Of a stretch of DNA of 39,104 nt, positions 7,200-38,791 are shown piece by piece. The notes under the pieces were generated by a model. It saw only the letters and a list, made by a program, of their open reading frames with translations, was not told the DNA's origin and did not search any database. This stretch comes from an uncultured Methanosarcinales archaeon (GTDB lineage Archaea; Nanobdellota; Nanobdellia; Woesearchaeales; JAGVZT01): NCBI GenBank assembly GCA_964419615.1, contig CAYQPU010000006.1, forward strand, positions 15,418-54,521. Reading direction: 5' to 3'. Every line of letters starts with the position of its first letter. Positions within the stretch are counted from its first letter, which is position 1. The translations under genes were made by a program, and so were the position numbers.

Positions 7200-7256
7200 G
7201 GTATGATTGTTCCCTACTTAGCAAACCTAAAAGATCAGTGATGACTCTTTTTTGAT

Positions 7257-7270: not shown

Positions 7271-7291
7271 ACATATTTCTAAATTGGTGTT

Positions 7292-8088: not shown

Positions 8089-8296
8089 GTATTACACCTC
8101 TTTACTACAAAAAATCAGTATAGATTGTTATTTGGTATACTCATATTTAAAGAATCTCAATTTGGAAACTATATAATCCAAGCCGTTATTATTGGTGTGG
8201 TATTACAAGTTTTAAACACTTGTTAGTTAATCAGTCTATTTGGTGATAATATATGGCACTGTCTATAATAATTTAATAATACTTCAAGGCTTAGAA

Positions 8297-9961
8297 TTAA
8301 CCATTGACAATTTTGAACACTTTTCTTAAATCAATTTCAAATGCTGCTGCTGGCATTTCAAGTGTGAAATTTGATAATAGTTGAGGGTTTAGTTCGCCAA
8401 GTGTACCAATGGTTGTCTTTCCAATTTTTACTTCTGCGCACCTGCCTTCAATAAAAGATGGATGTTTTGCAGCTTTGACTGAACATTTTACACCAAGGCT
8501 GTTCATTAAGTAGTCAAGAATTTGCTTTGCTTGCGTGAATGATGATTCTTTTTGGCATAGTATCATAGATAATTTTGAGGTTTCCTTAATACCTGATTCA
8601 GTGTTTTTGTCTTTATTGAACACAATCCCTATTTCAAATAAGTTCTGGGGATATTCGTGATGTTTGTTTGTTCTAAGGACCTGAAGTAAACTTGGCAAGA
8701 GCCAGGTTCGAAGAATATTGTATTCAGAGCTTGAGGCTTTTTCCAGTTCAATGTAGTTTGTTTCCAGTAATGAGTTTTCAATTAGGTCTTTTTCATTGAT
8801 TAAGTGGAATGTGCTTGCTTCAATTAGTTCAAAACCAATCAAAGATTCTGCAATTTTTCTTTTAAATATCTCAAATTTGTCTTCTTGGCCTATTGTTGCA
8901 ACATTTGGAATTTCTTCTTGGAAATTTTCGTATCCATAAGCGATTGCAATATCTTCTACCAGATCTACTTGGTGCATTATGTCAGTCCTATAAGCTGGGA
9001 CAATTACTTCTCCCTTTTCATAACCAAAGCCCATCCTTTCCAAATATTTTTTAAATTCTTTGTCACTCAAAGTGAGTCCGAGCCTCTTATTAACATATTT
9101 GTGATCCACCTTCATTTTACTTGGTTTTAGGTCAGGAGTTGCTATTGTTTTGTTAGGATATTCAATATCCAAACTGTAAATATCTCCACCCATATCTGCA
9201 AACATTGTGACGAAAATGTTCAATGCATGATTAACATTATTCAGATCAGTACCAGTACATTCAATAAAAACTTCTTTAGTTGATTCATCAACTTTTCCAG
9301 TATCATGAGAATTAGTGTATGGAAGCATACACATAACATTTTCTTTTGAATCGATAAAAAAAGGATATTTAGTATATCCTTGTTTCCTCCAAGAATCTGC
9401 TATATGTTTGTATTTTGGAGCAGTTGGATGGACTTCCTCAGTTTTTATTGCCAGCATTTTTTCTTCAAATCCTAATGGTTGGAACATAATTTTTCTAGGA
9501 TCTCTTGTTGTATATCTAATTGGAAATGTTACATTATCAGTTGGGTAAACACCATATGCTGATTTTTTCCTTCCTCTACCGTGTGTGGTAGCCAGTTTTT
9601 CTTGCATGTGCATTACTTCAATAATTCTCTCATTAGTAAATTTTACATTTCTTATAATTGCACACGCAGTGTAGGGTCTCATTTTTACTGAGCTATCAAC
9701 AATCACTTTATAACCTGATTTTTTAACATTGTATTTTCTAAGTCCAGTTTTAACACCTATGAATGATGATAGTGCACGTGCAAAACCTTGCTCACTTAAC
9801 ATGTCTGGTCTGTTTGGGAATACTTCTACTGAGATTTGGTCTCCTTTTATACCATCTAAGTCTGTACCTAAGTAAGAGATTCTGTCTTTTAGCTTTTCCA
9901 AGCTAAGTTTCTTTCCTACTAATGATTCCAAGACTTTTTTGTTTAAGTGTACTGTTGGCAT
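8297..9961 (-). CDS. pheT: Phenylalanine--tRNA ligase beta subunit (archaeal type)
   Basis: PNRPDMLS, PAYRTDIMHQVDLVEDIAIAYGY and YPQNLFEIG. Confidence 0.96.
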   Translation of the reverse strand: MPTVHLNKKVLESLVGKKLSLEKLKDRISYLGTDLDGIKGDQISVEVFPNRPDMLSEQGFARALSSFIGVKTGLRKYNVKKSGYKVIVDSSVKMRPYTACAIIRNVKFTNERIIEVMHMQEKLATTHGRGRKKSAYGVYPTDNVTFPIRYTTRDPRKIMFQPLGFEEKMLAIKTEEVHPTAPKYKHIADSWRKQGYTKYPFFIDSKENVMCMLPYTNSHDTGKVDESTKEVFIECTGTDLNNVNHALNIFVTMFADMGGDIYSLDIEYPNKTIATPDLKPSKMKVDHKYVNKRLGLTLSDKEFKKYLERMGFGYEKGEVIVPAYRTDIMHQVDLVEDIAIAYGYENFQEEIPNVATIGQEDKFEIFKRKIAESLIGFELIEASTFHLINEKDLIENSLLETNYIELEKASSSEYNILRTWLLPSLLQVLRTNKHHEYPQNLFEIGIVFNKDKNTESGIKETSKLSMILCQKESSFTQAKQILDYLMNSLGVKCSVKAAKHPSFIEGRCAEVKIGKTTIGTLGELNPQLLSNFTLEMPAAAFEIDLRKVFKIVNG

Positions 9962-10506
9962 TATAGTAACCTGTTTAGTTTTTCCATTGTTGTTTTGACA
10001 GTTGTTTTTCCAAACTCATCATTTTCAAAAGGTTCGTGAGCAGTTCCTCCAAAGTGAGCATCATCTCCAATCACCACCATTCCATGTATATGCATTGCTG
10101 CCATGATATCAATGATGGTTAATTCCTGGCCACCATTCCTACTTCCACCTACAGCTAGAACTGCTCCAAGTTTGTCTCTTAGTCTCATGTTGTTTCTTCT
10201 TAGCCCAACAGTTCTGTCAATTAATGTTTTCATTTGGCCAGTCATGCTTCCCATGTATACCGGAGATACAAATACAATTGCGTTTGCTTTGTCAAGTTCT
10301 TTGTTAATGTCATTCATATCATCTTTTTGTATGCAAATTCCTTCTTTTTTGCAGTAACCACATGCAGTACAAAAGTTGATTTCCTTTTCTGCAACATGAA
10401 CAACTGAATAAGTATGATTTTTGTTGACTAATGATGTGGCATACTCAACTATTTTAGAGCTGTTTTGTTTTCTTGGACTGCCATTAATGAATGTTATGTG
10501 TGCCAT
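9961..10506 (-). CDS. Iron-sulfur flavoprotein (Isf)/NADPH-dependent FMN reductase family
   Basis: GSPRK, Cx2Cx2Cx5C (CTACGYCKKEGIC), SPVYMG and GGQELT. TAATG overlap with pheT. Confidence 0.88.
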   Translation of the reverse strand: MAHITFINGSPRKQNSSKIVEYATSLVNKNHTYSVVHVAEKEINFCTACGYCKKEGICIQKDDMNDINKELDKANAIVFVSPVYMGSMTGQMKTLIDRTVGLRRNNMRLRDKLGAVLAVGGSRNGGQELTIIDIMAAMHIHGMVVIGDDAHFGGTAHEPFENDEFGKTTVKTTMEKLNRLL

Positions 10507-10515
10507 TTTGTTTTT

Positions 10516-12027
10516 TTATTTTAACCATAGTTTCATTTGTTTTATTTGCTCTAGATCATTTTTGTATAGATCTCGAATATCTGCTAAGTTATAATACTCT
10601 AGGATTGATCTATCAAAACCAAGTCCCCAAGCAATTACTGGGATTTCTGTTCCAAACAATGGTTTTGTTAATTCTGGTCTGAATATTCCAGAACCACCAA
10701 GTTCCATCCATTCTTTTCTTACTGGATGAAATACATCTACCTCAGCTGAGGGTTCTGTATAAGGGAAATAACCTGGCCTGACTCTGACTTTTGGATAACC
10801 CATTCTTATAAAGAAATTTTTAAGATAGCCAATCAGGTTTCTAAAGTTTGCATCTGGATCAACAACTATTCCTTCTACTTGGATTAGTTCAAATAAATGG
10901 CTCCAGTCTAGTGTTTCGTTTCTAAAATTTTTTCCGACTGCGAAAAACTTTGCTGGCAGATCCTGTTTTTTAAGGTTTGAGATGTATCTGGCACTTAAGC
11001 AAGTTGTATGTGTTCTTAAAACATTTCTCATTGCCTCTTCTGGGTTCCACTTGTATTGCCAGCCTTTACTGCCTGTTGTCCAGCCGTTTTCATGAGTTTT
11101 TTTTACTCTTTGCACAACTTCTGGCTTGACTAGTTTTCCTGTTCTTGGTTCTTTTATGTAATATGTGTCCTGCATATCTCTAACAGGATGGTCTTGTGCT
11201 GTGAACAGTGCATCAAAATTCCAAAAACCAGTTTGAACAAGCGGACCCTGCATTTCCTTAAACCCAAGCTCTAACCAAATTTTTTTTACATAGTCTATTG
11301 CCTGGTTTGTAAAGTGCCGCTTTCCAGGATATATTGTTGGGACATTTATTTCAACGTCATATTGTCTGAAGGTTTTTCCTTTCCAAGTGCTGTTTTTTAG
11401 CATTCCAGTTGTTACATTTTCCACAAGTTCTTGTGTTAGATCTGCTTTGACAAGCTCTTTTCCAAGTTGGCTTAATTTGACTAGTTTTGTTTTACGAGTT
11501 TTTAACTTGAAAATGTCTTTTCTTTCTAATAAGGAATCTGCAATTTGTTTTTCGGTTTTAGATAGATTATCATATAGAATAGGAAATTCCTTGTTGAAAA
11601 TGGTTTGGTTATTCTTTAGAGTGTTTAGTGTTTTTTTACCTAGACTGGTGATCTTAATAATCCCTTTATCAAATGTTATGGAGTCCTTTCTAAACATACC
11701 TATACAAACATTGATTTCGCTTTTTTCCAAAACTTTGCTTAATTGTTTAATTGCAGTTGGTTTTTGGACTGTTTGTAAGAATCTAACTTCAGGAAGGCCT
11801 TTTTTTTGGTAGAGCTTTCCATTTTTGTCTAGATGGAGGTAGTCTTTTGTTTGTTTTTTTAATTGAAGAGCTTTTTTGTTTTCAAGCCATTGTAGTGCTC
11901 TGATTACTTCTACTTGCTTAAGCCCTGAATTCTTAGCAATTTCTAGTTCATCTGCATCATCTTTTAAGTGTGGAACAGTTTTTCTTTCCAATGGATGAAG
12001 TGTTTTAACTACTTGCTCTACTTTCAT
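10516..12027 (-). CDS. pheS: Phenylalanine--tRNA ligase alpha subunit (archaeal type)
   Basis: FWNFDALF..QDHP, LRTHTT, FRNE, YFPYTEPS and GIFRPE. Confidence 0.96.
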   Translation of the reverse strand: MKVEQVVKTLHPLERKTVPHLKDDADELEIAKNSGLKQVEVIRALQWLENKKALQLKKQTKDYLHLDKNGKLYQKKGLPEVRFLQTVQKPTAIKQLSKVLEKSEINVCIGMFRKDSITFDKGIIKITSLGKKTLNTLKNNQTIFNKEFPILYDNLSKTEKQIADSLLERKDIFKLKTRKTKLVKLSQLGKELVKADLTQELVENVTTGMLKNSTWKGKTFRQYDVEINVPTIYPGKRHFTNQAIDYVKKIWLELGFKEMQGPLVQTGFWNFDALFTAQDHPVRDMQDTYYIKEPRTGKLVKPEVVQRVKKTHENGWTTGSKGWQYKWNPEEAMRNVLRTHTTCLSARYISNLKKQDLPAKFFAVGKNFRNETLDWSHLFELIQVEGIVVDPDANFRNLIGYLKNFFIRMGYPKVRVRPGYFPYTEPSAEVDVFHPVRKEWMELGGSGIFRPELTKPLFGTEIPVIAWGLGFDRSILEYYNLADIRDLYKNDLEQIKQMKLWLK

Positions 12028-12061
12028 TAAATAAAGAGTTCAGGATTGTGATTTATATAGT

Positions 12062-13135
12062 TTATTGTTTTTCTTTAGTATTAATACCAGATAATCTTTT
12101 TTCAATGTTTTCAATTTGAAAATCAAAAAAACCAGCCAGGTGTTCATCTTCCCATAGATCCTTTTTCTCCAAAAGCACACCTATATGCTCTCTTTCTCCA
12201 TATTTACCAAAATCAGGTAATACATCTTCACAGAAAATCCAACTACTTGTTTCTGGATCAAGATATTCTTCAAATACATGCAATTGTGCGGATCCACCTA
12301 TTTTAAGCATTGCTTCTTTTAGAGCCCAACTTGGAGACCTGCTTCCTTGCCAATATCCTTCAACAAATGATTGTCCATACCATGTGCCAATGTTTGGAGG
12401 TAATGAGTTTTGATTATGTAGTTTAAATAAAGCCTGTAGGGATTCCTGGCTTCCAATTTCTCCGATGATATAGACAATCCATTCTCGTGCACCTGAATCA
12501 ATTGATCTATTTGATGCCAATTCTAATATTTTTCCAATATTAGAAAAACTATCACTTCGTGCAAGAAACTTGCTTGCCTTTTCATATGCTCTTTGGTATT
12601 CATCTCTGTCCCAAAGATTACTTACATTATCCTGGACATCTTGGGCTGAGTATAATCTGATTCTGTTTTGACTAAGATGTTTTCCAATTTTTTCAAGCAT
12701 TGATACAGCCAAGGGCTCTGCTGCTCTAACATCCCATTTGTCAATTATAAACGCACCAGTATAAACAGCACTTGCTGAGTCTCTCATTATTAATTCACAT
12801 GCTGCAGTTTCAACCCAAGGATTATCATCATGTTTTACAGGAATCCATTTATCATAGTTTCCTTCTCTTTCTGACCAAAATGAATGTTGCAGATAATCAC
12901 TTCTAAAGGCTTCTTTTTCTTTAGTAGTTAGTACATCCACTGCCCAATGAGACTGACCTGTTAAAAAATTATATAGAAATTCTTGTTGATTTTCCCAATC
13001 AAGATTATCTGTAATCCAAGTTACAGTTTCTCTTCTTTTTTCTATTATCGTTGGATCCATATCTCTTGTTATGTGTGGTCCAAGAGGTAGTGTTTCCTTA
13101 AGATAGTCAAATGCATTGTTTATTGTTTTATACAT
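12062..13135 (-). CDS. Hypothetical protein with C-terminal HEAT/PBS-lyase-like repeats
   Basis: 357-aa ORF with repeating helix-G-helix units (IIGEIGSQESLQAL, MLKIGGSAQLHVF, FGKYGEREHIGVL). Confidence 0.6.
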   Translation of the reverse strand: MYKTINNAFDYLKETLPLGPHITRDMDPTIIEKRRETVTWITDNLDWENQQEFLYNFLTGQSHWAVDVLTTKEKEAFRSDYLQHSFWSEREGNYDKWIPVKHDDNPWVETAACELIMRDSASAVYTGAFIIDKWDVRAAEPLAVSMLEKIGKHLSQNRIRLYSAQDVQDNVSNLWDRDEYQRAYEKASKFLARSDSFSNIGKILELASNRSIDSGAREWIVYIIGEIGSQESLQALFKLHNQNSLPPNIGTWYGQSFVEGYWQGSRSPSWALKEAMLKIGGSAQLHVFEEYLDPETSSWIFCEDVLPDFGKYGEREHIGVLLEKKDLWEDEHLAGFFDFQIENIEKRLSGINTKEKQ

Positions 13136-13182
13136 TTTTTTAATGGTTTGGATTTTTTGTTTTTGTTAATCGTGTTTTCTAC

Positions 13183-13596
13183 CTAGTACATAGTTGTTAC
13201 AAATGCTGCACATCTTTCCTCTTCATTATCTGGCCAAAAACACAGATCAGATAGTATTATTTCACCAGTCATTTCAGCTTCACCTGCAGCCACTTTCTCC
13301 TCAAGTAGTTCCTTTGCAGCGTATCGATCAATTACCTCCACTTCATATTTTCTCATTGTTTCTGGCATTTCAACATTGTAACTATAAACAAAAACCGATC
13401 CTTCAGTTGGCAAATCAAATTGCATTCTGACAAAGACATCATTTTCTATTGTGGCTTCACCGGGATACAGGGTAGAGATTAGGTCTGCTCCACCAAAAAG
13501 ATTATTACCACATAAAATCCCAAACTCACTGCTTCCTTTAATAAGATAACAGGCAAGCCCCATATATGCACCCATAATTAAATCTTGATTTTCCAT
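13183..13596 (-). CDS. Hypothetical acidic protein
   Basis: 137-aa ORF with GGTGA-type SD upstream; no family recognised. Confidence 0.6.
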   Translation of the reverse strand: MENQDLIMGAYMGLACYLIKGSSEFGILCGNNLFGGADLISTLYPGEATIENDVFVRMQFDLPTEGSVFVYSYNVEMPETMRKYEVEVIDRYAAKELLEEKVAAGEAEMTGEIILSDLCFWPDNEEERCAAFVTTMY

Positions 13597-13674
13597 CTAA
13601 CTTCACCATACTTAGCTAATGGGATTTAGATTAAGATTGTTAACGTGTTACTATACTTACGAGTAGTATTTTGC

Positions 13675-13688
13675 AATAGATTTATATA
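13675..13688 (+). promoter_or_regulatory. BRE-TATA for the phoU-like gene (leaderless)
   Basis: AATAGATTTATATA, ending 23 nt before ATG13711. Confidence 0.6.
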
Positions 13689-13710
13689 TTTTAAAAAGGT
13701 CCCAGTATAT

Positions 13711-14592
13711 ATGAAACGTAAAATTTCTATGGTTGGCAGGAGTTCTTTAGCAGTTACTTTGCCATCAAAGTGGGCCAAGAAGTTTGGCATTACAAAAGGA
13801 GATTTGGTTTCTGTAAAATAAGACGGTAAAAACTTACATATTTCTGTTGATAAAGTAAAATCAGAAAAAGCGGTTGTCCAGATTGATGGTATGGATTCAA
13901 CTGTTGTTTGGCGATATATGCTGTGCTACTATAAACTGGGATTTGATAAAATTGAAGTAAGGTTTGACTCAAATAAAGTTAAAGCTGCAGGAAGGAGAAA
14001 AGAATTTGGCAAGGTTGATGTTTTTGATTTAATGCATGATATTGAACAAGGTCTTGTTGGTATGGATATAGTTAAGGAAGATGAAAATAAAGTAGTGTTT
14101 AAAGAATTGGCAGAGATTAATGAAAAGGAATTTGATAATGCATTAAGAAGGATCTTTCTGTTGATTAAAAGAATGGGTTCAAAGCTAGATGATTCAAAAA
14201 AAGTCCAGGAAATTGATTTGACGGTGAATAGGCTTTGTGTTTATTGTGAAAGAATTTTAACAAAAAAACAGATTGGTGCAGGATCCAAAGCGCATCTGCA
14301 TTATTCACTTGTAAACTTGCTTGAACAGATTGGTGATGAGTATAAAGAAATATCAAAAGTATATTCAAAGAGAAATGCTACAGCTGCTTTGCAAGTAAAT
14401 AAATTAATGGAATTGTTTTATGACTGCAATTATAAGTTTTCAACCGAAAGTGTGCAAAAGAATTGTTCAAAGTGCACTGAATTAAAATCTGCGTTGCAGT
14501 CAAGTAGTAATAAGGTTTTGAGTTTTCATTTATTATCAATAATAGATTTGATTAAGAATGGCATGCAGATTTTAATTGAACTTAACGCTTAG
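13711..14592 (+). pseudogene. AbrB/SpoVT-PhoU archaeal phosphate-uptake-regulator-like gene interrupted by an in-frame TAA (13819-13821)
   Basis: Hand translation from ATG13711 gives MKRKISMVGRSSLAVTLPSKWAKKFGITKGDLVSVK*DGKNLHI..., in frame with the 13891 ORF (KELAEINEKEFDNALRRIF, LEQIGD PhoU repeats). Confidence 0.85.
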
Positions 14593-14797
14593 CTGCAAGT
14601 TTGATGTCCCCTTCTTGAATTGTTTTTCTGCCTGTGTGTCTAGCAATTTTATCAGCTTGCACTGAGATATCTTCTGCAATATCTGTTAAGATTTCTGCAA
14701 ACAAATCAACTGCATCTGCTGACACTCTTTTTGCTCCAGCTTTGTACAATATCCGTGCAATTGGTGCTCTGGGGATTGTGTGTGTTTTTCTTGACAT
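14582..14797 (-). CDS. Archaeal histone (HMf family)
   Basis: IPRAPIARI..AGAKRVSADA...ARHTGRKTIQEGDIKLA histone fold. Confidence 0.95.
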   Translation of the reverse strand: MSRKTHTIPRAPIARILYKAGAKRVSADAVDLFAEILTDIAEDISVQADKIARHTGRKTIQEGDIKLAAKR

Positions 14798-14853
14798 TTG
14801 CTTACCTAAGGTAAAAATTGAAGTTAAGGTATAAATATGTTTTGTATTAATCT

Positions 14854-15858
14854 CTAAGATACCTGTAATAATCCCTCAAGACTAGCAACTATTTCTTGAT
14901 CTCCTTGTTTAAGATGTTTGCATAATTTGCATACATTTTTTGTATTTGGTAATTCATAACCAGGGAATTGTTCTTCAATAAAGGATACTACACTTGGAAC
15001 ACTGTGTATCCTTAGTGTATTTGAAACAATGTCTGCGTTTGCTGCAATCCTTAATTCATCAGCGGTTATTTCCTCTCCCATTTTATTAGTTATCAGTAGG
15101 TTTTCATCAAATATTCCACCGAGAGCGCAGCATCTGTAAACACCTTTTTCTTCTTCGGATATAGGAGCTAACGTAAGAGTTTGATTATGGCAATAGAAAC
15201 TAACTTGCTCTTGAAGACCTTTCATTCCAATTGCTCTCCCTACTTCCTCTACAGGCCAAGGAAACATTCTATAGGTAACAGTTGCTGTCTGATCAGGTTC
15301 ACTAATTATTACTGCAAAATTACCTTGTTTAAAATCCCATGTACAGGAATAATTATCAAAAGTTAGTGCATTACTTATTTCATGCAACACGTTATTTTTA
15401 GATTTATTTGGAGTTTCTATGACATTTAATCTAAGAAGATTAGCACCATTTGTTTCGATATTCTTGTATGTTAATGCTAATAAGAAATTCACTACATGAT
15501 CAACAGGTACAAATTCTTGATGACCTTCTCCAACACTTGTTGACCACTCTGCACTATCATATTTATCAATTATTATTTTTGCTTTTGATAGTGATGAAGC
15601 CCACTGCATATTGGAATTAATGTTTGTCTTAATACCATAACTGTTGCCTACCTCAATAGCTCTTTTCAAATGCTCTGGATATAAAATTGACTCTCCACCA
15701 CTTAATCCATTGAGTTCTTCCCCAAATTGGGCATTTATTTCAATCCAACTTTCAACATCATTAAATCCCAATTGAGGATTATACCTATCCATACCAGATT
15801 CATTGCAGCAATATTTGCATCGAGATCCGCATCCATATCCAAAAAATGTTCCAAACAT
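14854..15858 (-). CDS. Radical SAM enzyme, YydG/EpeE (peptide epimerase)-like
   Basis: C10xxxC14xxC17C18, SGGES, SNMQWAS, TSVGEGHQEFVP, EVGRA, C223, YRC243C244 and C310xxC313, collinear with the YydG motif order. Confidence 0.78.
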   Translation of the reverse strand: MFGTFFGYGCGSRCKYCCNESGMDRYNPQLGFNDVESWIEINAQFGEELNGLSGGESILYPEHLKRAIEVGNSYGIKTNINSNMQWASSLSKAKIIIDKYDSAEWSTSVGEGHQEFVPVDHVVNFLLALTYKNIETNGANLLRLNVIETPNKSKNNVLHEISNALTFDNYSCTWDFKQGNFAVIISEPDQTATVTYRMFPWPVEEVGRAIGMKGLQEQVSFYCHNQTLTLAPISEEEKGVYRCCALGGIFDENLLITNKMGEEITADELRIAANADIVSNTLRIHSVPSVVSFIEEQFPGYELPNTKNVCKLCKHLKQGDQEIVASLEGLLQVS

Positions 15859-30778: not shown

Positions 30779-31660
30779 ATGGAAGATATTGATAAGTATG
30801 AGAAAGCAGGAAAAATTGCTGCTGAAGCTTTAGTTTATGGAAAACAACTAATTCAAAAAGAAAGTTTTCTTTTGGATGTAACCGAAAAGATTGAAGATTT
30901 TGTTAAAAAAAAGGCTGGACTTGCATTTCCAGTTCAGATTGCAATGAATAGTGTGGCTGCTCATTTTTATCCAGATCAGGATGATGAGATAAGATTTGAA
31001 GATCAGGTTTGTAAGTTAGATGTGGGAGTGCATGTTGATGGTTTTGTTGGAGATAATGCTGTTACAGTTGATTTATCTGGAAAGCACTCTGAATTGGTAC
31101 AAGCATCTAGAGAAGCACTGGAAAATGCTATTAAAATTGTCAAACATGGAGTTCAAGTTGGTGAGATAGGTAAAGTTATTCAAGATTCTATTACCAAATA
31201 TGGCTTGGCTCCGGTTAGAAACCTGAGTGGGCATGGGCTTGATGAATATAATGTTCATACTCCACCAAATATTCCCAATACAGCAACAGGTGATACTACC
31301 ACTTTAGATGAAGGTGAAGTGGTTGCTATTGAACCGTTTGCATCGACTGGTGCAGGTATTGTTATTGAGACTAGCAATCCAACTTTGTACCAGATTATTG
31401 AACCAAAGCCAGTCAGGGATAGATCAACAAGGCAGATTCTGGAGCACATTATGAGTTATAACAATTTACCATTTGCTAAGAGATGGTTGATAAAAGAATT
31501 TCCATTGTTTAAGGTTAATTTTGCTTTGAGGAGAATGTTGAATTTGAAGATAATTTCCAGTTTTCCTCCGCTTGTGGACAAGGCAAAGGGTATTGTTAGT
31601 CAGGCAGAGTATAGTGTGCTGGTTGAGAAAGATGGTTGTAGAATATTGACTAAAGCTTAA
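30779..31660 (+). CDS. map: Methionine aminopeptidase type II
   Basis: AAHF, DVGVHVDG..GD, GHG, AIEPF and QAE metal ligands, plus the type II helical insertion. Confidence 0.95.
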   Translation: MEDIDKYEKAGKIAAEALVYGKQLIQKESFLLDVTEKIEDFVKKKAGLAFPVQIAMNSVAAHFYPDQDDEIRFEDQVCKLDVGVHVDGFVGDNAVTVDLSGKHSELVQASREALENAIKIVKHGVQVGEIGKVIQDSITKYGLAPVRNLSGHGLDEYNVHTPPNIPNTATGDTTTLDEGEVVAIEPFASTGAGIVIETSNPTLYQIIEPKPVRDRSTRQILEHIMSYNNLPFAKRWLIKEFPLFKVNFALRRMLNLKIISSFPPLVDKAKGIVSQAEYSVLVEKDGCRILTKA

Positions 31661-32253
31661 CCTGGAGGCTCTTCTCTCTTACATATCTCTAAGTATTCTT
31701 TTGCTAACACACTAAGTTTCTCGTGTGTTAATCTATAACCTTCTTCATCAAAATAACTGCCTTCCATTGAAATGATCCCCATTTTAGTTTGAAATTCAAG
31801 GAGCATATCAGCTCGTTCTTGCTCTGACACATCTAGACTATTATCAGAGTCCCCACACACGACGTATAATCTCTGGAAATCTTCGTTATTAGTAATATCT
31901 TCAACAATGTTCCCGCAACCAGTACCAACATACTCTTCCACCAAAACTCCTAATTCAGTAAAATCAACTGGATTACCAGCTGGATCAGAGTAGAAAACCT
32001 CTTCAACACCAGAGCTTGTTGTCTCAAGCACCAAAGAAAAACCATAAACATCACCAAATTCTTTATAAAAACCATGCATCTCGTACTTTGATACTTCTGT
32101 GTCTTTATTATAATCCCCACAAACTGTTGCAGCTCTGTCTAAAATCGGCATAAATATCTCAACAGGTTCAGGTTCAGAATCACAGCCAACCATACTTGTT
32201 GCAGCAATCATAGCTGCTAGACCAACCAAAGTAAATTGTATTGTTTTATTCAT
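31657..32253 (-). CDS. Lipoprotein with two tandem repeats, each carrying an EF-hand-like loop
   Basis: Lipobox MVGC24; loops DYNKDTEVSKYE (47-58) and DSDNSLDVSEQE (135-146); GGAGG SD. Confidence 0.7.
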   Translation of the reverse strand: MNKTIQFTLVGLAAMIAATSMVGCDSEPEPVEIFMPILDRAATVCGDYNKDTEVSKYEMHGFYKEFGDVYGFSLVLETTSSGVEEVFYSDPAGNPVDFTELGVLVEEYVGTGCGNIVEDITNNEDFQRLYVVCGDSDNSLDVSEQERADMLLEFQTKMGIISMEGSYFDEEGYRLTHEKLSVLAKEYLEICKREEPPG

Positions 32254-33955
32254 TTTCCTCCCTTATTCCCGCATCTTTTTCAGTTTGACCAAACCATTCA
32301 TTAAATCCTTTTTCATATTCTTCTAGCTCTCTTTGCTCAGCAGTAGCCTTTTGTTCATCAATATAAGTGTTTAACTCTGATACTTTTCCTAATGTCACTA
32401 GTTCTTCATTTGGAAATTCTTGTGTAAGACTACCAAGCAGTTCTTTTGCATAATCATAATTTTCTATTCCTGTTGCAAGTTCTGCTAATGTGTAGTATGC
32501 TTGAGCAGCCCAATATTTTTGAAAAGGTTCATAACCTGTGGTAAGTGCTATTGATTCTTCTAGATGGCCAGCAACTGCTATAACATCTTCATACTCAAAA
32601 ACAGCACCTTCCTGATCCCAACCCATATCCTTTAACATAAGGTGAGCAATAGAATAGTGTGCAATTGAAGCTCTGAATGGATTTCCATGTGCACTTGCAC
32701 GGTAAATGTCAACTATCTCATCTTGATCAATTGCATATGCTCCTACCAAATCTTCAGGTAGTCTTAGTACACTTATTTTGTCTTCTTCTGCAACTGACAA
32801 AAGTTCAGCTTGTCCTGCATAAATGCTTGCTAAAACATAATTCATCTTAAATGCAAGATTTGTTCCAGGTGCTTGTTTGATTATATCCTTGATCCACTCT
32901 TCTGTTAGATCATGTGCATTTTTGGGATTGTGGTATTGTTGAACATTAAAATTGTCAATAACCAAATCTAATAGGTTTTTAGTTGACCATGCGCTTATTT
33001 TTGGATAATCTAACAACAATGTTGTTTGTTCATCTACAATCTCTTCTGCAGAGAATAAATTTTGATTAAAGTATTTTGTAATATAGATTTCATATTGTGA
33101 ACTGTATGCTTCAACAGTTCCCGGATGCATGAGTATAATCTGCTGAAAAGCATCAATTTTTTCAGATAACAGTTCAGGATCAATTGTTGTCCCCTGATTG
33201 TCCATGCTATCTGGCATGTTCATTGCTTCAACATATAGATAATTTGCTTCATCGGAATTAGGAAGGATTTGATAATCTACGCTAATAACTTTACTGTTTA
33301 TTCCAAGTGTTATTGCTTCTGTTATAGGTGGGAGTTCTTCAGAAGGTTGTGCTGCTAGTATTTGATCATATACTGGTCTCATGAAGTCCCTTCTGCTGTT
33401 AGCATAAATGCTCTCGCTCCTTATTCCAGCATATAACCAAGCTACTCCAATTAAGCAAGAACTCATAACTATCCAACCTAAAGTGCCAAATATTTTTGAT
33501 CTGACTCCTTGTTTAACACTATCTGAGTGATGGAAATCATTTGAAACATTGCTCTTAACATTTTCTCTATTTTGTTTTTTAATCTCTGATTCAATTAGTT
33601 TTTTTACTCGGTTACCATAGCCCGCTAGATCATTTGGTGATGATTTTCCTGATATCACAGAAGCTATGAAACTTGTAATGTCTTTTGGAGTGATATCTGA
33701 GTTCAATAGAGTTTGCAGAACTTCTGATCTTCTGCCCATTGAAAATACATACTGCCTGATTAGAAGGTCGCCAAATTCGTCTCTAGTTGTTACATCTCTT
33801 AGTTGCCTATAAAATTCTGGATCAGGATCTTTTGCTATTCTGTTAGCTAGTATTAAAAGAGCAGGGTGATTAACAAGTTCATCAATTGTTTGATCTCCTG
33901 GTTCATATAACGCATTTGACATTGCTACAATATCTTTTATTGCTGGATCACTCAT
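32246..33955 (-). CDS. Single-pass membrane protein with a cytoplasmic N-domain and extracellular TPR-like repeats
   Basis: TM IFGTLGWIVMSSCLIGVAWLYAG; TPR-like helices (AYSSQYEI, AFKMNYVLASIY, AQAYYTLAEL...NYDYAKELL); ATGA overlap. Confidence 0.72.
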   Translation of the reverse strand: MSDPAIKDIVAMSNALYEPGDQTIDELVNHPALLILANRIAKDPDPEFYRQLRDVTTRDEFGDLLIRQYVFSMGRRSEVLQTLLNSDITPKDITSFIASVISGKSSPNDLAGYGNRVKKLIESEIKKQNRENVKSNVSNDFHHSDSVKQGVRSKIFGTLGWIVMSSCLIGVAWLYAGIRSESIYANSRRDFMRPVYDQILAAQPSEELPPITEAITLGINSKVISVDYQILPNSDEANYLYVEAMNMPDSMDNQGTTIDPELLSEKIDAFQQIILMHPGTVEAYSSQYEIYITKYFNQNLFSAEEIVDEQTTLLLDYPKISAWSTKNLLDLVIDNFNVQQYHNPKNAHDLTEEWIKDIIKQAPGTNLAFKMNYVLASIYAGQAELLSVAEEDKISVLRLPEDLVGAYAIDQDEIVDIYRASAHGNPFRASIAHYSIAHLMLKDMGWDQEGAVFEYEDVIAVAGHLEESIALTTGYEPFQKYWAAQAYYTLAELATGIENYDYAKELLGSLTQEFPNEELVTLGKVSELNTYIDEQKATAEQRELEEYEKGFNEWFGQTEKDAGIREENE

Positions 33956-34785
33956 TTTAGGATCTCCTCCAACACAGTTTTATAATCAAAGGATACGGGA
34001 TCAATACCAATTTCATCAACAAACTCCTCTAAACCTTGGTCTACAAGACCAGGTACATTGACATCCAATTCTTTTTCCAAGTATTCACCAAGAGTTTGAT
34101 CCAAATGATCTGGGATTTCAACACTATATTCCACCCTAACATGTTCCATATATTGTCTTTGATCTGCTAATTGATCTTGGTAAAAGACAAGTCCATTAAA
34201 GAGAGCTATTGCTAATACTCCTGCAATAACAATGGTTCCTAAAACTCTTGGAAATCTACTCCTTCCTCTGATTCTCTTCTTTACTTCCCTGTTTTCATTA
34301 TATTTGTCATGATAATTTCCTAGTAATTCTTCCTCATATTTTGCTTTAAAACCTAACTTAAGTTTCTCAATTAAGTTATCAGTTTGTTTTTTTATTTGTC
34401 TTGATGGAATTGCAGAGAAATATATTGATGCCGCTTTAACAAGATTTGAATCTAGAGTCCTTTCAGATCTATCCATTGCAGCTTCAATCTCTGCTCTGAC
34501 ATTCTCATCTGCAGCGGTATTAATAAACATATCAGCAATCAATAGCTTTGAGTAATCTTGCATGCTCTCAAGTTTATGCAAGTATTTTTCATCTTGAGAT
34601 GTTGTTAATAATGACAACAAACGTCTAGTTGTGTATAATTTTGTTGCTGAAATTGCTTCAAATGGAGTGATGTCTCTTAAATCATCTTCCTCTATCTCTT
34701 CAGGAGGTGTCATCAGTAAATCAAAGAAGTCGTCTACATCTTGCTTTGTTTTGTCTGCAACTCTTGTTCCTGTGTTTGGACCCAT
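33952..34785 (-). CDS. Single-pass (type II) membrane protein of unknown function
   Basis: Basic KKRIRGRSRFPR followed by TM VLGTIVIAGVLAIALFNGLVFY; GGAGG SD; abuts the E1 stop. Confidence 0.72.
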   Translation of the reverse strand: MGPNTGTRVADKTKQDVDDFFDLLMTPPEEIEEDDLRDITPFEAISATKLYTTRRLLSLLTTSQDEKYLHKLESMQDYSKLLIADMFINTAADENVRAEIEAAMDRSERTLDSNLVKAASIYFSAIPSRQIKKQTDNLIEKLKLGFKAKYEEELLGNYHDKYNENREVKKRIRGRSRFPRVLGTIVIAGVLAIALFNGLVFYQDQLADQRQYMEHVRVEYSVEIPDHLDQTLGEYLEKELDVNVPGLVDQGLEEFVDEIGIDPVSFDYKTVLEEILK

Positions 34786-36189
34786 TTATTTTCCTCCAAA
34801 ATGATTGCATTTGTAGTCTGCTTGAATAAAAGCTACTCTGTTAGGTCTTTTGCTACTGTAATCAAAATATCCTCTTGGCATTGGTAAACCAGCTGCCCAT
34901 CTATCAAACAAACTCAGCATTGCATTAGCCCCTATCATGTTTGTTGTACCTACAGAGGGATCGGGTTCTTCAATGCACCCAGCAGGCACATGATCTCTTT
35001 CTGCTAGTTCACTAATATTAAAGACCTCTTCAAGACAAGCAGTTTCACCTGGAACTGCTGCATAAGCTTCACTAGATTTTGCTGTTGAAGTTGCATAAAA
35101 TAAAGGAATATTAATATTATGTTTAGTTGCTGTGTCATTTAACAGGTTGGATAAAGGATGTGAGTCTCCACATCTAAAAATTGCATCTGGAATCTTTCCT
35201 TTAAACTTTCCTTCAAAGTACTCATCATATGCTCTGATTTTTGTTTTCCCATATTTTCTCAAGATTTTAGCTGTTGTGGAAGCTTTTGGAAGACCAATAC
35301 AATCATCAAGCAAAGATATTTCAAAAAGTCTATTTAAGTTAAGTTCTTCATATTCATCTTTATCCCAAAGTCTTACTTCTTTTACTCCTCTTTGGATTAA
35401 TCCTATAGCTACAGGTAATCCAAGTCCACTAACTCCAATAACATCCACTACCAAATCATAGTTTGGAACAGGAGCTTCATGGTCATCCTCATAACCAACA
35501 AAAACATCTGATAAGAAGTTTACATGGACTGTTTCCTCTGACTTTGTCTCACCAGGTAAAGGAATAACAAGTTTTCTTACCATGTCTCCAACAACTCCTC
35601 CAATTAAACCAGCAATTACTGGATCTTGGGGTTGTTTTCTATACCCTGGGGAAAGTTGTCCATAAGTGACAATATCAGCACCCCTTGATCTTTTGGGTAA
35701 TATTATTTTTGCTTCTCCTGTCCATTTCATTGCAGAAGCATTGACCATTGGAATATTTCTTGAATGACAGTATTTTATTAGTAAAGATTCTAGGATTGGA
35801 TTATTTGTTGCATCAACAATAACAGCATGATCAGATACACCTTTATTATCAAGCAATGCAAAATCTCCTCCATCCAAATTCCAAATAGTGCCCATTTTTG
35901 TATTTAGATAATTATGCATTATATCAGGACTGCTTCTTTTAAGAATATCTTCAAGTATTTCTACTTTAAAGGTGCCTGGTGCAGCCCCATGATAGATGAA
36001 CTCATCTGCATTGAATCTTCTATAGATTGCATTATCATAGATATCAATATCTGAAAATCCAAGCATTGATAGAGCTCTAAGTGTTTGAATTGCTAAGGGT
36101 TCAGAACCAAACACACCAATTGAAGCCTCGTAAAGCTTGGACTGATCCCACCCGTCAATTGCTTGTTGTCTTAGATATCTATCACTCAT
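34786..36189 (-). CDS. E1-like ubiquitin/Ubl-activating enzyme with tandem ThiF domains (inactive then active adenylation domain)
   Basis: Domain 1: DRYLRQ..IDGWDQSKL with degenerate GSEPLA. Domain 2: IGVSGLG, DKDEYEELNLNR, PKA, and AGC405IEEPDPSVGTT as candidate catalytic Cys. Confidence 0.85.
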   Translation of the reverse strand: MSDRYLRQQAIDGWDQSKLYEASIGVFGSEPLAIQTLRALSMLGFSDIDIYDNAIYRRFNADEFIYHGAAPGTFKVEILEDILKRSSPDIMHNYLNTKMGTIWNLDGGDFALLDNKGVSDHAVIVDATNNPILESLLIKYCHSRNIPMVNASAMKWTGEAKIILPKRSRGADIVTYGQLSPGYRKQPQDPVIAGLIGGVVGDMVRKLVIPLPGETKSEETVHVNFLSDVFVGYEDDHEAPVPNYDLVVDVIGVSGLGLPVAIGLIQRGVKEVRLWDKDEYEELNLNRLFEISLLDDCIGLPKASTTAKILRKYGKTKIRAYDEYFEGKFKGKIPDAIFRCGDSHPLSNLLNDTATKHNINIPLFYATSTAKSSEAYAAVPGETACLEEVFNISELAERDHVPAGCIEEPDPSVGTTNMIGANAMLSLFDRWAAGLPMPRGYFDYSSKRPNRVAFIQADYKCNHFGGK

Positions 36190-36195
36190 GTATTA

Positions 36196-37344
36196 TCACT
36201 TTAGATTACCTTTTGTTGGTCTATCTCTCCACCATTCCAAAAAGGTGGAAAATAATGCTCCAATCAGAGTTTGGTGTTCAGTTGATTTCACACTAACTGG
36301 TTTTGGAGTCTTTTCAACAACTTCTTTCTCTGGTTCATCTTCTTCATCTACACCAGTTTGTTGTTTTCTTCTAACTCTCCTTGGAGGTCTTAGTGGTTCA
36401 ACAATGTTTTTCATAACATCATATCTCATTTCTTCATCATCAACAATGACATCACCTTCAACATCATGCCAAACTTTTGTTGGCAATCCCCTTCCAGTAG
36501 GTCCAGTTAACAATTCAATTCTTCCAGGTACACCATTAATGTATTCTCTGACAAGTGCTTCAGCATAGATATGTCTACAGTAACCTCCTTCGGAAGTACC
36601 ATCTAGTTTCAATAACTGCTCCTCTCCAATACCTGTACAAATTATACTGATTATGTATTGAAGTTCAATTGTTTGATAGTCAGTTAATTCCTTAATCCCT
36701 GGGCCATTTACAAAATAGTCTTTTACAATCTCCAATAATTCACTTTGTTCTTCCAAGGAAACATCAAATTGTTCCGAGTGCATTCCAAGAGAATTAAGTA
36801 TTGGTTCTAATGGAATACCCATTTTTGTATCTGTTAATAGATCAGACAGCATTAAATATCCTTTACTTTCATCATAAACACAATCAAGATTATTCATTGT
36901 TACTTCTTTAAAGCCCAGAATTTTATTTTGAGGCCTTTTGTACAATATCCTATAGTTTTGTGGCCTATCACCATCTGCGTGATTTGATGGACTAAGTGAG
37001 TGAAATCTTGGATGAAAATGACCCCATCCATCCACAACTACATTTTCAGGATTGTCAGTAGGAAATTCAGCAGCTGCATTACCCAGCCATTCCACGCTAC
37101 CACCTGATGCTTCGTAGTGTTTTGGTATGAATATATCTCTTTTTAGTCCTTCATCACTGATTCTCAAAGGCAAAAAACATGCTTCCTTTCTTCCAAGTTC
37201 TTCTTCTACATGGTGATACATGCTTGTTATTTTTCTAATACAACCAGCTGATATGTCTAATCTATCTACTGAAGGAGTATTATAGTTTACAACTACATCA
37301 CCACTACCGATAGCCATTAATTCTCCAACGATTTCATCTCCCAT
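36196..37344 (-). CDS. JAB/MPN+ (JAMM) metalloprotease, deubiquitinase-like
   Basis: E54 and GWGH109FH111P...PS120NHAD124; a large insertion before the last strand (YIISIIC); acidic tail with a terminal amphipathic helix. Confidence 0.8.
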   Translation of the reverse strand: MGDEIVGELMAIGSGDVVVNYNTPSVDRLDISAGCIRKITSMYHHVEEELGRKEACFLPLRISDEGLKRDIFIPKHYEASGGSVEWLGNAAAEFPTDNPENVVVDGWGHFHPRFHSLSPSNHADGDRPQNYRILYKRPQNKILGFKEVTMNNLDCVYDESKGYLMLSDLLTDTKMGIPLEPILNSLGMHSEQFDVSLEEQSELLEIVKDYFVNGPGIKELTDYQTIELQYIISIICTGIGEEQLLKLDGTSEGGYCRHIYAEALVREYINGVPGRIELLTGPTGRGLPTKVWHDVEGDVIVDDEEMRYDVMKNIVEPLRPPRRVRRKQQTGVDEEDEPEKEVVEKTPKPVSVKSTEHQTLIGALFSTFLEWWRDRPTKGNLK

Positions 37345-37600
37345 TATGCTCTCCTCTCATTTGTTATTGGACAAACTTTTTCAACTTCTTCTTTTGTCCA
37401 TCCTTTAAATTTTTTAAATTCATCTTCTGGAAAATTTGCCCAAGTTAATTTTAAATGTGGATGCACTTTTCCAAAATATCCGTGCCTCAATATATTTACA
37501 CCATAGTGAAGATAATCCACAATTCGCTCTTCAGGTGTTGGTAATTTTGATTTGTAACTATTTGTACATATTGGACTATCCGTTCCAAAATCCCCTGTAA
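37344..37600 (-). pseudogene. 3' remnant of an E2-like (UBC-fold) gene, 5'-truncated at a junction
   Basis: ...GTDSPIC(37566-68)TNSYKSKLPTPEERIVDYLHYGVNILRHGY resembles IC-LDIL..W..I..VL..I..LL. The stop is coupled to JAB (TAATG). There is no in-frame start before the frame runs antisense to the Nudix gene. Confidence 0.5.
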
Positions 37601-37707
37601 AAGCGTGTTTATAATGGTCGTGTACAAAAGGTGAATTCGAGTGATGAATTGCGTGAAACGATGTATGCTTATACTTCTCAACAACAAGGTGCAGAGATAA
37701 TAATACT

Positions 37708-38127
37708 ATGAGATTCAAAAATGCTAGACACAGGAAAGCTGCGTTTGCTAATATGCGTAATAGAACCTCTGCTCGAGGCATAGTTAAACGCAAGAATAAA
37801 TATTTGTTAGTAAGAAGGCTGGATGGTAGGTATGAGTTCCCTGGAGGTAAGACAGATGGTGAACATCCTAAAAAAGCATTGGAACGTGAGATGAAAGAAG
37901 AAACAAACTTAAACATCAAAGATCCAGAACATATTAAAACACTATATAGTAAAGAAGGGTACTGGACTAGGTTTTATAAAACAAAAGCAAACGGTAAAAT
38001 CAAGCTCCAACCTGAAGAACTCAATGAATACAGATATGTTACAACTAAAGAAAGCAAGAAACTAAGAATGACCCGTCCCTCAAGACGGATGTTAAATGTG
38101 CTCAAAAAAGAGGATAAAAATGGTTAA
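37708..38127 (+). CDS. Nudix hydrolase with a basic N-terminal extension
   Basis: Nudix box GGKTDGEHPKKALEREMKEETNL (Gx5Ex7RExxEE). Confidence 0.92.
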   Translation: MRFKNARHRKAAFANMRNRTSARGIVKRKNKYLLVRRLDGRYEFPGGKTDGEHPKKALEREMKEETNLNIKDPEHIKTLYSKEGYWTRFYKTKANGKIKLQPEELNEYRYVTTKESKKLRMTRPSRRMLNVLKKEDKNG

Positions 38128-38791
38128 AAGAAAATTTAAATCAAATAAACAACGTAGAGCAGTGATGGCTAAACTCAACCCAGGACGCGGTATGAGGAAA
38201 GGCAAGCACACCTATAAGAGCATCTGGGAAGGTGACTGGGATGCTGATAAAGTACCTAATATAGACGACAAATACCCGTTCGATAAGAGCAGGACAGAAC
38301 CTGTCAATAAAGATATCAGCCTCTCAGAAGCTTGGGGCAGCCTGCAGTTGAGACGCGCGATCTATAACAAGAATATCAAGAAGATTGCGGGCGCGATCGG
38401 GTCCAAGAAGTACAGGGTCAAGCAGCACTATAGCGCGATCAATAAGCAGATGACTCGCTACATAGATAATATCGAGGACATGGGTGGGCTCACTGTCTAT
38501 GCCAATACCAGGCTAGAGCTCGAGCTGGCAGTGATGAAGCTCAAACGTATGTTCAAGGGCAAGATCCAGGACTATGATAACAAGTACCAGGTAGCGCTTG
38601 ATAAGAAACGGGCATATATGGCACACCATTTCACTATCATCGACCAGGGTCTGCCGTACGAGATCCAGGTCAAGACCAAGAAGATGGCTGCATTACACAC
38701 AAAGATGCACGCGGATTATAAGAAATACGGGCCTGCGTACGTGAAAAAATATACAGAAGAAGCGTTCAGGCTCTACAGTCTCGGCTATTAA
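38120..38791 (+). CDS. RelA/SpoT-domain small alarmone synthetase-like nucleotidyltransferase
   Basis: RVKQHYSAINK (Syn1), EDMGG (Syn2), YMAHH (Syn3) and EIQVKT (Syn4). GAGGA SD before ATG38120, which overlaps the Nudix stop. Confidence 0.78.
   Translation: MVKRKFKSNKQRRAVMAKLNPGRGMRKGKHTYKSIWEGDWDADKVPNIDDKYPFDKSRTEPVNKDISLSEAWGSLQLRRAIYNKNIKKIAGAIGSKKYRVKQHYSAINKQMTRYIDNIEDMGGLTVYANTRLELELAVMKLKRMFKGKIQDYDNKYQVALDKKRAYMAHHFTIIDQGLPYEIQVKTKKMAALHTKMHADYKKYGPAYVKKYTEEAFRLYSLGY

Follow-up and report, generated by a model that had tools for sequence, protein, structure and literature searches.

Does the genome of a DPANN archaeon carry, within one compact operon, a working ubiquitin-like conjugation cascade? 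The question is raised by a 39,104-nucleotide (nt) stretch of contig CAYQPU010000006.1 (contig 6), here called the window, whose numbering we use throughout: positions 31657-37655 are filled by six same-strand frames, all on the minus strand. An original prediction, made from the sequence, saw here a working cascade of an E2-like carrier, a JAB protease and an activating E1, joined to membrane proteins and an extracellular sensor. Outside eukaryotes, complete E1-E2 cascades have been described in a few archaea (Caldiarchaeum, Asgard) and in the bacterial Bil, Bub and CBASS defence systems. Our results support a different answer, in which the window probably holds a 5'-truncated and most likely inactive copy of a ubiquitin-like protein (Ubl) conjugation operon that is widespread in Nanoarchaeota-type DPANN archaea. 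The window lacks the Ubl gene and ~340 codons (about three quarters) of the E2-like gene and, because tag and carrier are both absent, a working cascade in the window is unlikely. That part of the original prediction is not sustained: at the locus the Ubl gene is absent and no more than the final quarter of an E2 is left, and the genome's sole detectable Ubl of the family lies on another contig.

Results

Layout of the locus

The six frames and the flank at the break are as follows.

37344..37655, minus strand: E2-like remnant, the last ~104 codons of an E2-like gene
36196..37344, minus strand: JAB/JAMM-family protein of 382 amino acids (aa), with an N-terminal MPN domain and a ~250-aa extension
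34786..36189, minus strand: tandem-domain E1 of 467 aa (Pfam ThiF, E 6.1e-28, in two stretches)
33952..34785, minus strand: TM1, a bitopic membrane protein of 277 aa (hydropathy scan)
32246..33955, minus strand: TM2, a bitopic membrane protein of 569 aa (hydropathy scan)
31657..32253, minus strand: putative secreted lipoprotein of 198 aa, with a signal peptide and an MVGC lipobox-like site
37656..38791, plus strand: flank at the break, with a Nudix gene (37708-38127) and a RelA/SpoT-type synthetase gene (38096-38791), from open reading frames (ORFs) and Pfam annotations on identical metagenome contigs

From the remnant to the lipoprotein, successive frames are joined by a TAATG overlap, a 6-nt gap, an abutting junction, an ATGA overlap and an 8-nt overlap. 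The original prediction had listed six co-oriented genes with these junctions, and each was re-read exactly as given. It had also assigned Shine-Dalgarno (SD) sites to most of the genes; GGAG or GGAGG indeed stands 5' of four of the five real starts, and none precedes the E1 start.

The remnant belongs to a family of E2-like proteins

A word-indexed search with the window E1 returned only three close clusters, and the contigs that carry them are syntenic with the window. They represent two orthologous operons: L001/L051, which are the same region of genome G194, and L005+L067. In both, the order is Ubl (198-205 aa, ending in GGR or GGI), E2-like gene (441-448 aa), JAB, E1, TM1 and TM2. Placement of the locus in a family with the E2, JAB, E1 order of Bil operons was thus correct, since the syntenic copies comprise a GG-ended Ubl, an E2-like protein, a JAB and a tandem E1. 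A possibility raised with the original prediction, that such copies might lack a Ubl or E2 gene, was checked against them, and both the GG-ended beta-grasp protein and a full E2-like gene are present.

The remnant itself is 51% identical to residues 344-442 of P0007, the 448-aa E2-like protein that precedes JAB in the L001 relative, which bears out its first reading as a piece of an E2-like gene, and it matches the hidden Markov model (HMM) of the E2-like family with E 3.6e-20. Its frame (37919..37344) runs back antisense into the Nudix gene, and homology to anything starts only at ~37655. There is no ATG; the sole in-frame starts nearby are a TTG at 37718 (124 aa) and a GTG at 37520 (58 aa). 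What has been retained is an H-A-F motif (H-P-F in the aligned relatives), the family's invariant Cys (codon 37568-37566) and the C-terminal helices. Lost are the first three quarters of the protein, and with them almost the whole ubiquitin-conjugating (UBC) beta-sheet.

The family to which the remnant belongs is large. Among 1.8 billion representatives, the E2-like profile found 488 clusters at 50% identity, 256 of them with E <= 1e-10, and their existing names are all 'hypothetical protein', from Nanoarchaeota or Pacearchaeota records. Members are 420-620 aa long, with ~290 extra N-terminal residues before the UBC-like domain. The Cys is invariant across 83 sequences, and H-P-F lies 13 residues upstream of it. 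None of these 83 proteins matches any Prok-E2 Pfam model at E <= 0.01, and the profile has no match among Protein Data Bank (PDB) sequences. Language-model features point to Prok-E2_D clusters (0.93-0.94), which we take as a lead only. In the E2-like protein of the Hainich groundwater orthologue (P0026; L067:2547-3872), K-G-A-F stands in place of the K-H-P-F of relatives; because this protein nevertheless keeps the invariant Cys, His-Pro appears to be dispensable in this subfamily.

Structural modelling gave a clearer indication of the fold. The AlphaFold2 (AF2) model of P0007, built from 142 sequences, has a predicted local distance difference test (pLDDT) score of 84 overall and >94 for residues 290-440. 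The meaningful Foldseek matches of this model are E2 enzymes (probability <=0.96, E 0.02-0.1). In a Foldseek-guided VIA comparison the best 50 rows are all of the E2/UBC fold and nearly all E2 enzymes (Z 5.5-6.6, with 114-142 of ~150 residues aligned). An unbiased VIA search of 48,161 chains likewise placed E2/UBC-fold proteins in all of the top 24 positions, including BubB and the E2 domain of Cap2 (Z 4.5-5.9, 110-142 residues aligned), with UEV and RWD domains coming next. Along the chain, the elements follow one another as in a UBC core that carries an insertion: a beta-meander at 297-348, H-P-F at 359-361, Cys373 and a long helix at 384-401. We thus predict a UBC-like fold for the E2-like domain, with a catalytic-type Cys after an HPN-type loop, from models whose Z scores are modest. 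The concern that the remnant's family might not adopt a UBC fold, voiced with the original prediction, is answered to the extent that the domain of this relative is predicted to be UBC-like.

Intact relatives carry a Ubl gene upstream

The gene directly upstream of the E2-like gene in relatives encodes a small protein (123-234 aa), and these proteins are mutually linked by transitive phmmer matches. Most of them end in a hydrophobic strand, x-x-GG and then 0-10 residues, with longer tails in a few less certain assignments. Examples of the C-terminal ends, with a hyphen after the Gly pair, are ...LAILTHEEGG-R, ...IAVASVQEGG-LEYKI and ...LELVLLNDIAGG; across the relatives, the ends include GGR, GGI, GGYRTLDYRVR, GGLEYKI, GGAEYYFK, GGYF and ...AGG. 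By sequence, this pattern resembles the LVLRLRGG end of ubiquitin.

For the Ubl encoded on contig 4 of the window's own genome (see below), an AF2 model from a 15-sequence alignment has a pLDDT of 77. Every Foldseek match of this model is a beta-grasp protein, with Caldiarchaeum ubiquitin in first place (probability 0.96, E 0.02). The unbiased VIA search returned almost only ubiquitin-like proteins, among them SAMP1, MoaD, BilA, BubA and ISG15, with Z 4.4-5.4 and 70-89 residues aligned, usually the entire target. The modelled fold and the C-terminal pattern together point to a GG-ended beta-grasp Ubl with a removable-type tail, which we propose would be trimmed by JAB.

JAB/JAMM protein

The 382-aa protein has no match of its own in Pfam, PADLOC or PDB sequences, and a word-indexed homologue search returned only itself; its orthologues were identified through synteny. 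It is 36% identical to the syntenic orthologue in a groundwater Woesearchaeota genome. Together with its two orthologues it aligns by hhalign to Prok-JAB-positive relatives (95.3%, E 2e-8), and the JAB family profile matches the Caldiarchaeum Rpn11 homologue 6fjv (E 1.8e-4) and Rpn11 itself. Taken together, the syntenic orthologue, the hhalign alignment and the Rpn11-type structures identify the protein, by sequence comparison, as a JAB/JAMM homologue, as first proposed. Its metal motif is atypical: GWGHFHPRFHSLSPSNHAD reads HxHx8Sx3D with a Glu upstream, where the canonical form is E...HxHx7Sx2D. The Glu, both His, the Ser and a nearby Asp are kept. Among the 17 family JABs with a readable motif, 15 have x7 and SxxD, the L001 protein has x8 and SxxD, and the window protein alone has Sx3D.

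A single-chain, tandem-domain E1

The window E1 scores 98 bits against Pfam ThiF (PF00899; cut-off 28.1), and two ThiF matches fall within one 468-aa frame, in agreement with the two-domain E1 of the original prediction. In a 21-sequence alignment, the N-terminal domain (~1-210) is a degenerate adenylation domain that keeps the fold and, of the invariant residues, R7-Q8 only. The C-terminal domain (~245-467) has the Gly loop, D276, N284, R287, K302 and D342, and an invariant Cys405 lies in its short crossover loop. There is neither an inserted CYS domain nor a ubiquitin-fold domain (UFD). In sequence terms the protein is a single-chain pair of one inactive and one active adenylation domain, as in eukaryotic E1s and BilD. 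All 17 strictly invariant residues of the family, including Cys405, are present. In the window E1 and its orthologues P0003 and P0004, both Cys pairs of a CxxC...CxC zinc site have been lost; the other 18 family members keep them.

Against PDB, the E1 profile matched UBA2 (2e-35), Uba1/UBA6 (~1e-30), MoeB (1e-30), ThiF (2e-30), TcdA (1.5e-29) and MccB (6e-27), and it placed the eukaryotic E1s well above Cap2 and BubCD (1e-18). Whether the E1 would group with ThiF, MoeB or TcdA had been singled out as a weak point of the original prediction, and here the outcome is mixed. Because the scores of eukaryotic E1s exceed those of MoeB, ThiF and TcdA only slightly, we place the enzyme by its architecture and context rather than by sequence alone. 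With PADLOC models, the window proteins gave no match other than weak Cap2-type matches of the E1.

The break

The Nudix/RelA-SpoT pair stands where, in the relatives, the E2-like gene begins and the Ubl gene precedes it. A junction of ~50 nt separates the remnant from the divergently transcribed Nudix gene, which in turn overlaps the RelA/SpoT-type gene. The truncation is not an assembly artefact, because the same junction occurs in four metagenome contigs (L010-L013), which are 99.99-100% identical to the window.

The right end of the window is the end of contig 6. Beyond it, metagenome contig L011 (L011:1-4240) carries five small ORFs, a major facilitator superfamily (MFS) transporter and an NTase/HEPN pair. 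The region at the break and beyond the contig end looks variable or mobile. A simple inversion of an ancestral Nudix-Ubl-E2 segment was considered and rejected, as the Nudix gene at the break is not orthologous to the one upstream of the contig-4 operon. Also rejected was a 371-aa gene past the contig end (in L011) as a counterpart of the conserved 420-428-aa gene of L001 and L067 described below; the two are unrelated.

Several residues may reflect the consequences of the break. At 31 highly conserved columns, the window E1 departs from consensus four times and its orthologue P0003 not at all; the departures include G254S, at the second Gly of the nucleotide loop, and Q288L, at the Gln of NLNRQ. 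Together with the Sx3D of JAB and the H-A-F of the remnant, these substitutions hint, at the sequence level, at beginning decay or relaxed constraint, but the events are few and not decisive.

An intact paralogous operon in the same genome

In this 99.4%-complete genome, the only Ubl of the family that we detected belongs to a paralogous operon on contig 4, and a second E2-like gene of the window's subfamily was not detected. The contig-4 operon is complete: a Ubl of 155 aa with a GGR end, an E2-like protein of 506 aa, a Prok-JAB protein of 511 aa and a tandem E1 of 472 aa, with a protein of 292 aa and a Ser/Thr kinase encoded after it. Its E1 and that of the window share 27% identity. The Ubls of the two subfamilies (205 aa and 155 aa) are 29% identical in a two-sequence alignment.

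The contig-4 operon (L014, contig 4, 38000-57000: 1905-15856) lies among NAD-related genes, with NAPRTase, NAD synthase and Nudix genes upstream and a cytidylyltransferase-like (NMNAT-type) gene and two NAD-kinase-like genes downstream. L045 repeats the upstream Nudix and the downstream CTP_transf_like gene; L047 has the downstream gene and no upstream Nudix; and both carry pyruvate kinase genes. A third ThiF-family gene of the genome, with a single domain (contig 49: 820-1497, minus strand; 209 bits), is likely, to judge from its sequence, to encode the MoeB/UbaA-type enzyme.

Membrane proteins and lipoprotein

Hydropathy scans divide TM1 into a ~180-aa helical N-terminal domain, a transmembrane span at 181-199, with KKRIRGRSRFPR before it, and then a C-terminal tail of ~78 aa, and TM2 into a ~150-aa N-terminal domain, a span at 155-173 and a ~395-aa C-terminal domain. 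Because each has a single hydrophobic span preceded by basic residues, both are predicted to have a cytoplasmic N-terminus and an external C-terminus, and TM1 fits the type II membrane protein first described. TM1 belongs to no Pfam family; its orthologues in L001 and L005 share the position of the span, and those of TM2 are 30-32% identical over their full length. TM1 and TM2 are kept with the same topology in all three copies of the window's subfamily, and TM2 is present in 2 of 401 genomes of the phylum, from different families.

TM2 had been called a transmembrane TPR protein. The single span holds, whereas there is at most one weak TPR-like repeat (485-516), below the Pfam cut-off of 26.3 bits both in the window (TPR_6, 14.6 bits, E 0.054) and in the L001 orthologue (23.7 bits, E 6.6e-5). 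Language-model features match TM2 to TPR clusters at 0.85, again a lead only. Of the proposed EF-hand lipoprotein, the signal peptide and MVGC site stand, but no EF-hand model matches, nor does any Pfam family at E <= 1. The protein has two internal repeats with acidic 12-residue loops, DYNKDTEVSKYE and DSDNSLDVSEQE, which fit EF-hand positions 1, 3, 5 and 12 and fail position 6 of the strict pattern; from the sequence, they are possible acidic calcium-binding loops. An HMM of the lipoprotein matched no ORF in any related locus, and the third downstream gene in L001 encodes an unrelated 132-135-aa protein with no transmembrane span. With the lipoprotein absent from the orthologous operons, EF-hands unsupported and the TPR match weak, the extracellular TPR/EF-hand sensor that had been envisaged is speculation.

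Distribution of the family and its accessory genes

Of the 401 genomes that were sampled in the window's phylum, 58 proved positive for the E2-like family in a six-frame search, as did 51 of 280 genera; the same kind of search found it in none of four other genomes of the window's own family. Among 20 further loci that were fetched, 16 have an E2-like gene and an E1 in one cluster, and 12 of these also a detectable JAB. The other four comprise two with tandem E2-like genes only, one in L001's own genome and one with a split E1. The core order is mostly E2-like, JAB, E1, with E2-like, E1, JAB in three loci; in four, the gene between E2-like and E1 does not match the JAB profile. The duplicated tandem E2-like genes lie at L048:2780-6325 and L063:8763-11866, where the fetched stretch revealed neither an E1 nor a JAB.

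Downstream genes differ by subfamily: a 292-aa protein with a Ser/Thr kinase, a ClpB/Cdc48-type AAA+ protein, a MazE-domain protein or a radical SAM protein. The second gene after E1 encodes the AAA+ ATPase (AAA_2, 3e-26; ClpB_D2-small) at L046:13921-15384 and L050:3523-5037, which suggests that in this subfamily tagging is linked to unfolding. Also downstream of E1 are a 772-aa radical SAM protein (L058:797-3115) and a 348-aa protein with a MazE/AbrB-type domain (L049:2985-4031). Comparison by hhalign among the accessory proteins (TM1, TM2, the 292-aa, 250-aa and 500-aa families and the kinase) gave nothing convincing, the best pair being TM1 and TM2 at 19% probability. Divergent from the Ubl gene, L001:3405-4691 and L067:509-1771 (both minus strand) encode a probable coiled-coil protein of 420-428 aa (24% identity, E 2e-31), which was not found in the window's genome with that query.

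With the window E1 and the contig-4 E2-like protein as queries, viral contigs yielded nothing in single-protein scans, which catch close relatives only. In one survey, a single archaeal taxon is reported to have ISG15-like (Bil) systems. We found no paper linking DPANN, Woesearchaeota or Nanoarchaeota to a Ubl-E2-JAB-E1 operon, within a coverage that excludes subscription-only papers.

Discussion

Our results point to a model in which the intact operon encodes a complete conjugation pathway, of which the window keeps only the downstream part. In the intact form, JAB would trim the Ubl residues after GG, and E1 would adenylate the exposed Gly and then form a thioester at the equivalent of Cys405. 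The Ubl would pass to the invariant Cys of the large E2-like protein, which would ligate it to targets without an E3, its large N-terminal region perhaps picking the targets. The accessory module, which differs between subfamilies, would set location or targets; in the window's rare subfamily, TM1 and TM2 probably position the system at the membrane or are themselves its targets. These predicted steps follow Bil precedent and the conserved residues. In the window, a deletion or replacement has removed the Ubl gene and ~340 E2-like codons, with the Nudix/RelA-SpoT pair now at the break. The surviving JAB, E1, TM1, TM2 and lipoprotein ORFs are intact but left without their cognate tag and carrier, in a cascade that is most likely dead and starting to decay. 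We consider it likely that the locus is an inactive relic.

Several observations weigh against this conclusion. The five downstream ORFs (5.7 kb) are uninterrupted and retain translational coupling and SD sites and, because they are intact and coupled, the truncation may be recent or the rest of the operon still used. The TTG at 37718 could yield a 124-aa product that contains the Cys loop. Substitutions at conserved sites are few, and the apparently intact L059 also shows four departures in its E1. The four metagenome copies, which show a difference of one base from the window over 7.6 kb, are essentially identical to it and give no evolutionary test of selection. Finally, the structural matches are modest (Z <6) and come from AF2 models of relatives, not of window proteins.

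It is possible, if unlikely, that the truncated locus still functions in trans, its E1 and JAB using either the contig-4 Ubl and E2-like protein or an E2-free tag of SAMP/MoaD type, and modifying or regulating the membrane proteins. The five intact, translationally coupled ORFs would fit such a role, as would the 17 invariant E1 residues with Cys405 and the Glu, His, Ser and Asp kept in JAB. The same genome offers a complete paralogous operon and a single-domain ThiF gene. Archaeal sampylation uses a single-domain homodimeric UbaA and no E2, and E2-independent sampylation is established in Haloferax. However, cross-charging is doubtful between E1s that are 27% identical and Ubls that differ as greatly as these (205 and 155 aa, 29% identity). 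Every intact copy of the subfamily keeps its own Ubl and E2-like gene, and the JAB motif spacing and the substitution in the E1 Gly loop are unique to the window.

Far less probable is a working Bil/Bub-like cascade that tags cytoplasmic or viral proteins on contact or infection and is connected by its membrane proteins with an extracellular TPR/EF-hand sensor. The family does have Bil-like order and parts, and TM1 and TM2 are conserved partners in the subfamily with large extracytoplasmic parts. A patchy distribution (58 of 401 genomes and none of four in the window's own family) and adjoining, variable toxin-antitoxin-like genes are typical of conflict systems. Nonetheless, the locus has no Ubl and no usable E2, its lipoprotein is not conserved, the EF-hand is unsupported and the TPR match sub-threshold, and PADLOC models gave nothing beyond the weak Cap2-type E1. 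Other subfamilies adjoin housekeeping and NAD genes, kinases and AAA+ unfoldases, a setting that suits regulation or quality control as well as defence. That the ThiF protein is instead a sulfur-carrier, TcdA-like or MccB/PaaA-like adenylating enzyme whose neighbours have nothing to do with Ubl chemistry is hardly credible: MoeB, ThiF, TcdA and MccB score almost as well as UBA2 and Uba1 with the E1 profile and the protein shares a short crossover loop with MoeB and ThiF, but the tandem inactive-plus-active architecture and the strict linkage, in many loci, to a GG-ended beta-grasp protein, a JAB and a Cys protein of the UBC fold speak against it, and neither a rhodanese domain nor a sulfur-transfer partner was seen in these loci.

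Returning to the truncated and probably inactive copy, we lean slightly toward a broader view in which the window is the relic of a large, DPANN-specific branch of Ubl conjugation, defined by a GG-ended Ubl, an unannotated HP(F)...Cys E2 family, a JAMM protease and a single-chain E1 that joins an inactive and an active domain in eukaryotic style, with interchangeable output modules. The window's subtype would be membrane-anchored, with two single-pass proteins that either recruit the cascade to the cell membrane of the episymbiont or are tagged there. What the window adds to this archaeal Ubl family is a truncation, a co-resident intact paralogue and a rare membrane-linked subtype. If correct, this would widen the known range of ubiquitin-like conjugation, with about one in seven sampled Nanoarchaeota-type genomes carrying an E2 family unrecognised by annotation libraries. 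It would also provide tractable small operons for asking whether tagging serves defence, quality control or membrane signalling in genome-reduced symbionts. The window mainly shows that such cassettes are gained, duplicated and broken; for the rare membrane-linked subtype, the intact form in L001 (genome G194) is the one to study.

Comparison with known systems

The locus had been described as Bub-like. Like the DPANN family, Bub operons (6E/DUF6527) combine a Ubl and an E2-fold protein with an E1 and with a JAB peptidase by which a C-terminal Gly is exposed, and BubB and BubA are among our structural matches. However, Bub proteins are fused (Ubl-E2, and JAB-E1 or E2-E1), work through Ser/Tyr oxyesters and are accompanied by the DUF6527 protease BubE (10.1101/2024.11.21.623953), whereas here the genes are separate, a Cys is invariant in both E1 and the E2-like protein, and DUF6527 has no match. 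The Bub comparison is therefore dropped.

The sampylation system (SAMP1-3, UbaA and HvJAMM1) shares a GG-ended beta-grasp modifier, a ThiF-type enzyme with a crossover-loop Cys and a JAMM protease, and the Ubl model has SAMP1 among its structural matches. In the DPANN family, by contrast, the E1 forms a tandem pseudo-dimer, and all of the examined loci link it to an E2-like Cys gene.

A closer archaeal parallel in some respects is the ubiquitin operon of Caldiarchaeum subterraneum and Asgard archaea, which encodes ubiquitin, E1, E2, a small RING E3 and Rpn11 (PMC5654768, PMC6043591). Both are archaeal operons that combine a GG-ended Ubl precursor and a JAMM protease with an E1 and an E2 of the UBC fold, the fold being predicted in our case, and the best matches of the JAB profile and the Ubl model are Caldiarchaeum Rpn11 and Caldiarchaeum ubiquitin, respectively. 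In contrast, no RING E3 gene was seen in the loci examined here, the DPANN Ubls are 123-205 aa long with N-terminal extensions (ubiquitin has ~80 aa), and the E2-like protein is unrecognisable as a UBC protein by sequence where the Caldiarchaeum/Asgard E2 is canonical. The lineage also differs, being DPANN here.

The bacterial BilABCD systems, Type I and Type II (CEHH/6C) (Chambers et al., preprint 10.1101/2023.09.26.559546; Hor et al., preprint 10.1101/2023.09.04.556158), differ from the DPANN family in several ways. Their hosts are bacteria rather than archaea (Nanoarchaeota/DPANN). The DPANN E2-like protein is long (420-620 aa, with its ~290 extra N-terminal residues), has an H-P-F...C motif in place of C...H (CEHH) and matches no Pfam Prok-E2 model, and the DPANN JAB has long C-terminal extensions. 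BilD has a separate CYS domain where the DPANN E1 has a short crossover loop. Varying accessory genes, among them membrane proteins, a Ser/Thr kinase and AAA+ proteins, accompany the archaeal operons. For a role in antiviral defence through tagging of a virion protein, as in Bil, the genomic surroundings of the DPANN loci give a mixed picture. The window copy lacks the Ubl and most of the E2; the four-gene set is present in L001, L005+L067 and the contig-4 paralogue. The likenesses lie in the organisation: intact copies have four separate genes in the order Ubl, E2, JAB, E1, a Ubl with a conserved Gly and a short tail (which in Bil is removed by JAB), and a single-chain E1 with inactive and active adenylation domains and no UFD. 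Neither system has an E3, and in both E1 and E2 are Cys-based. We do not treat the DPANN family as a member of Bil but, by analogy, it would work like Bil, which is the known system closest to it in organisation.

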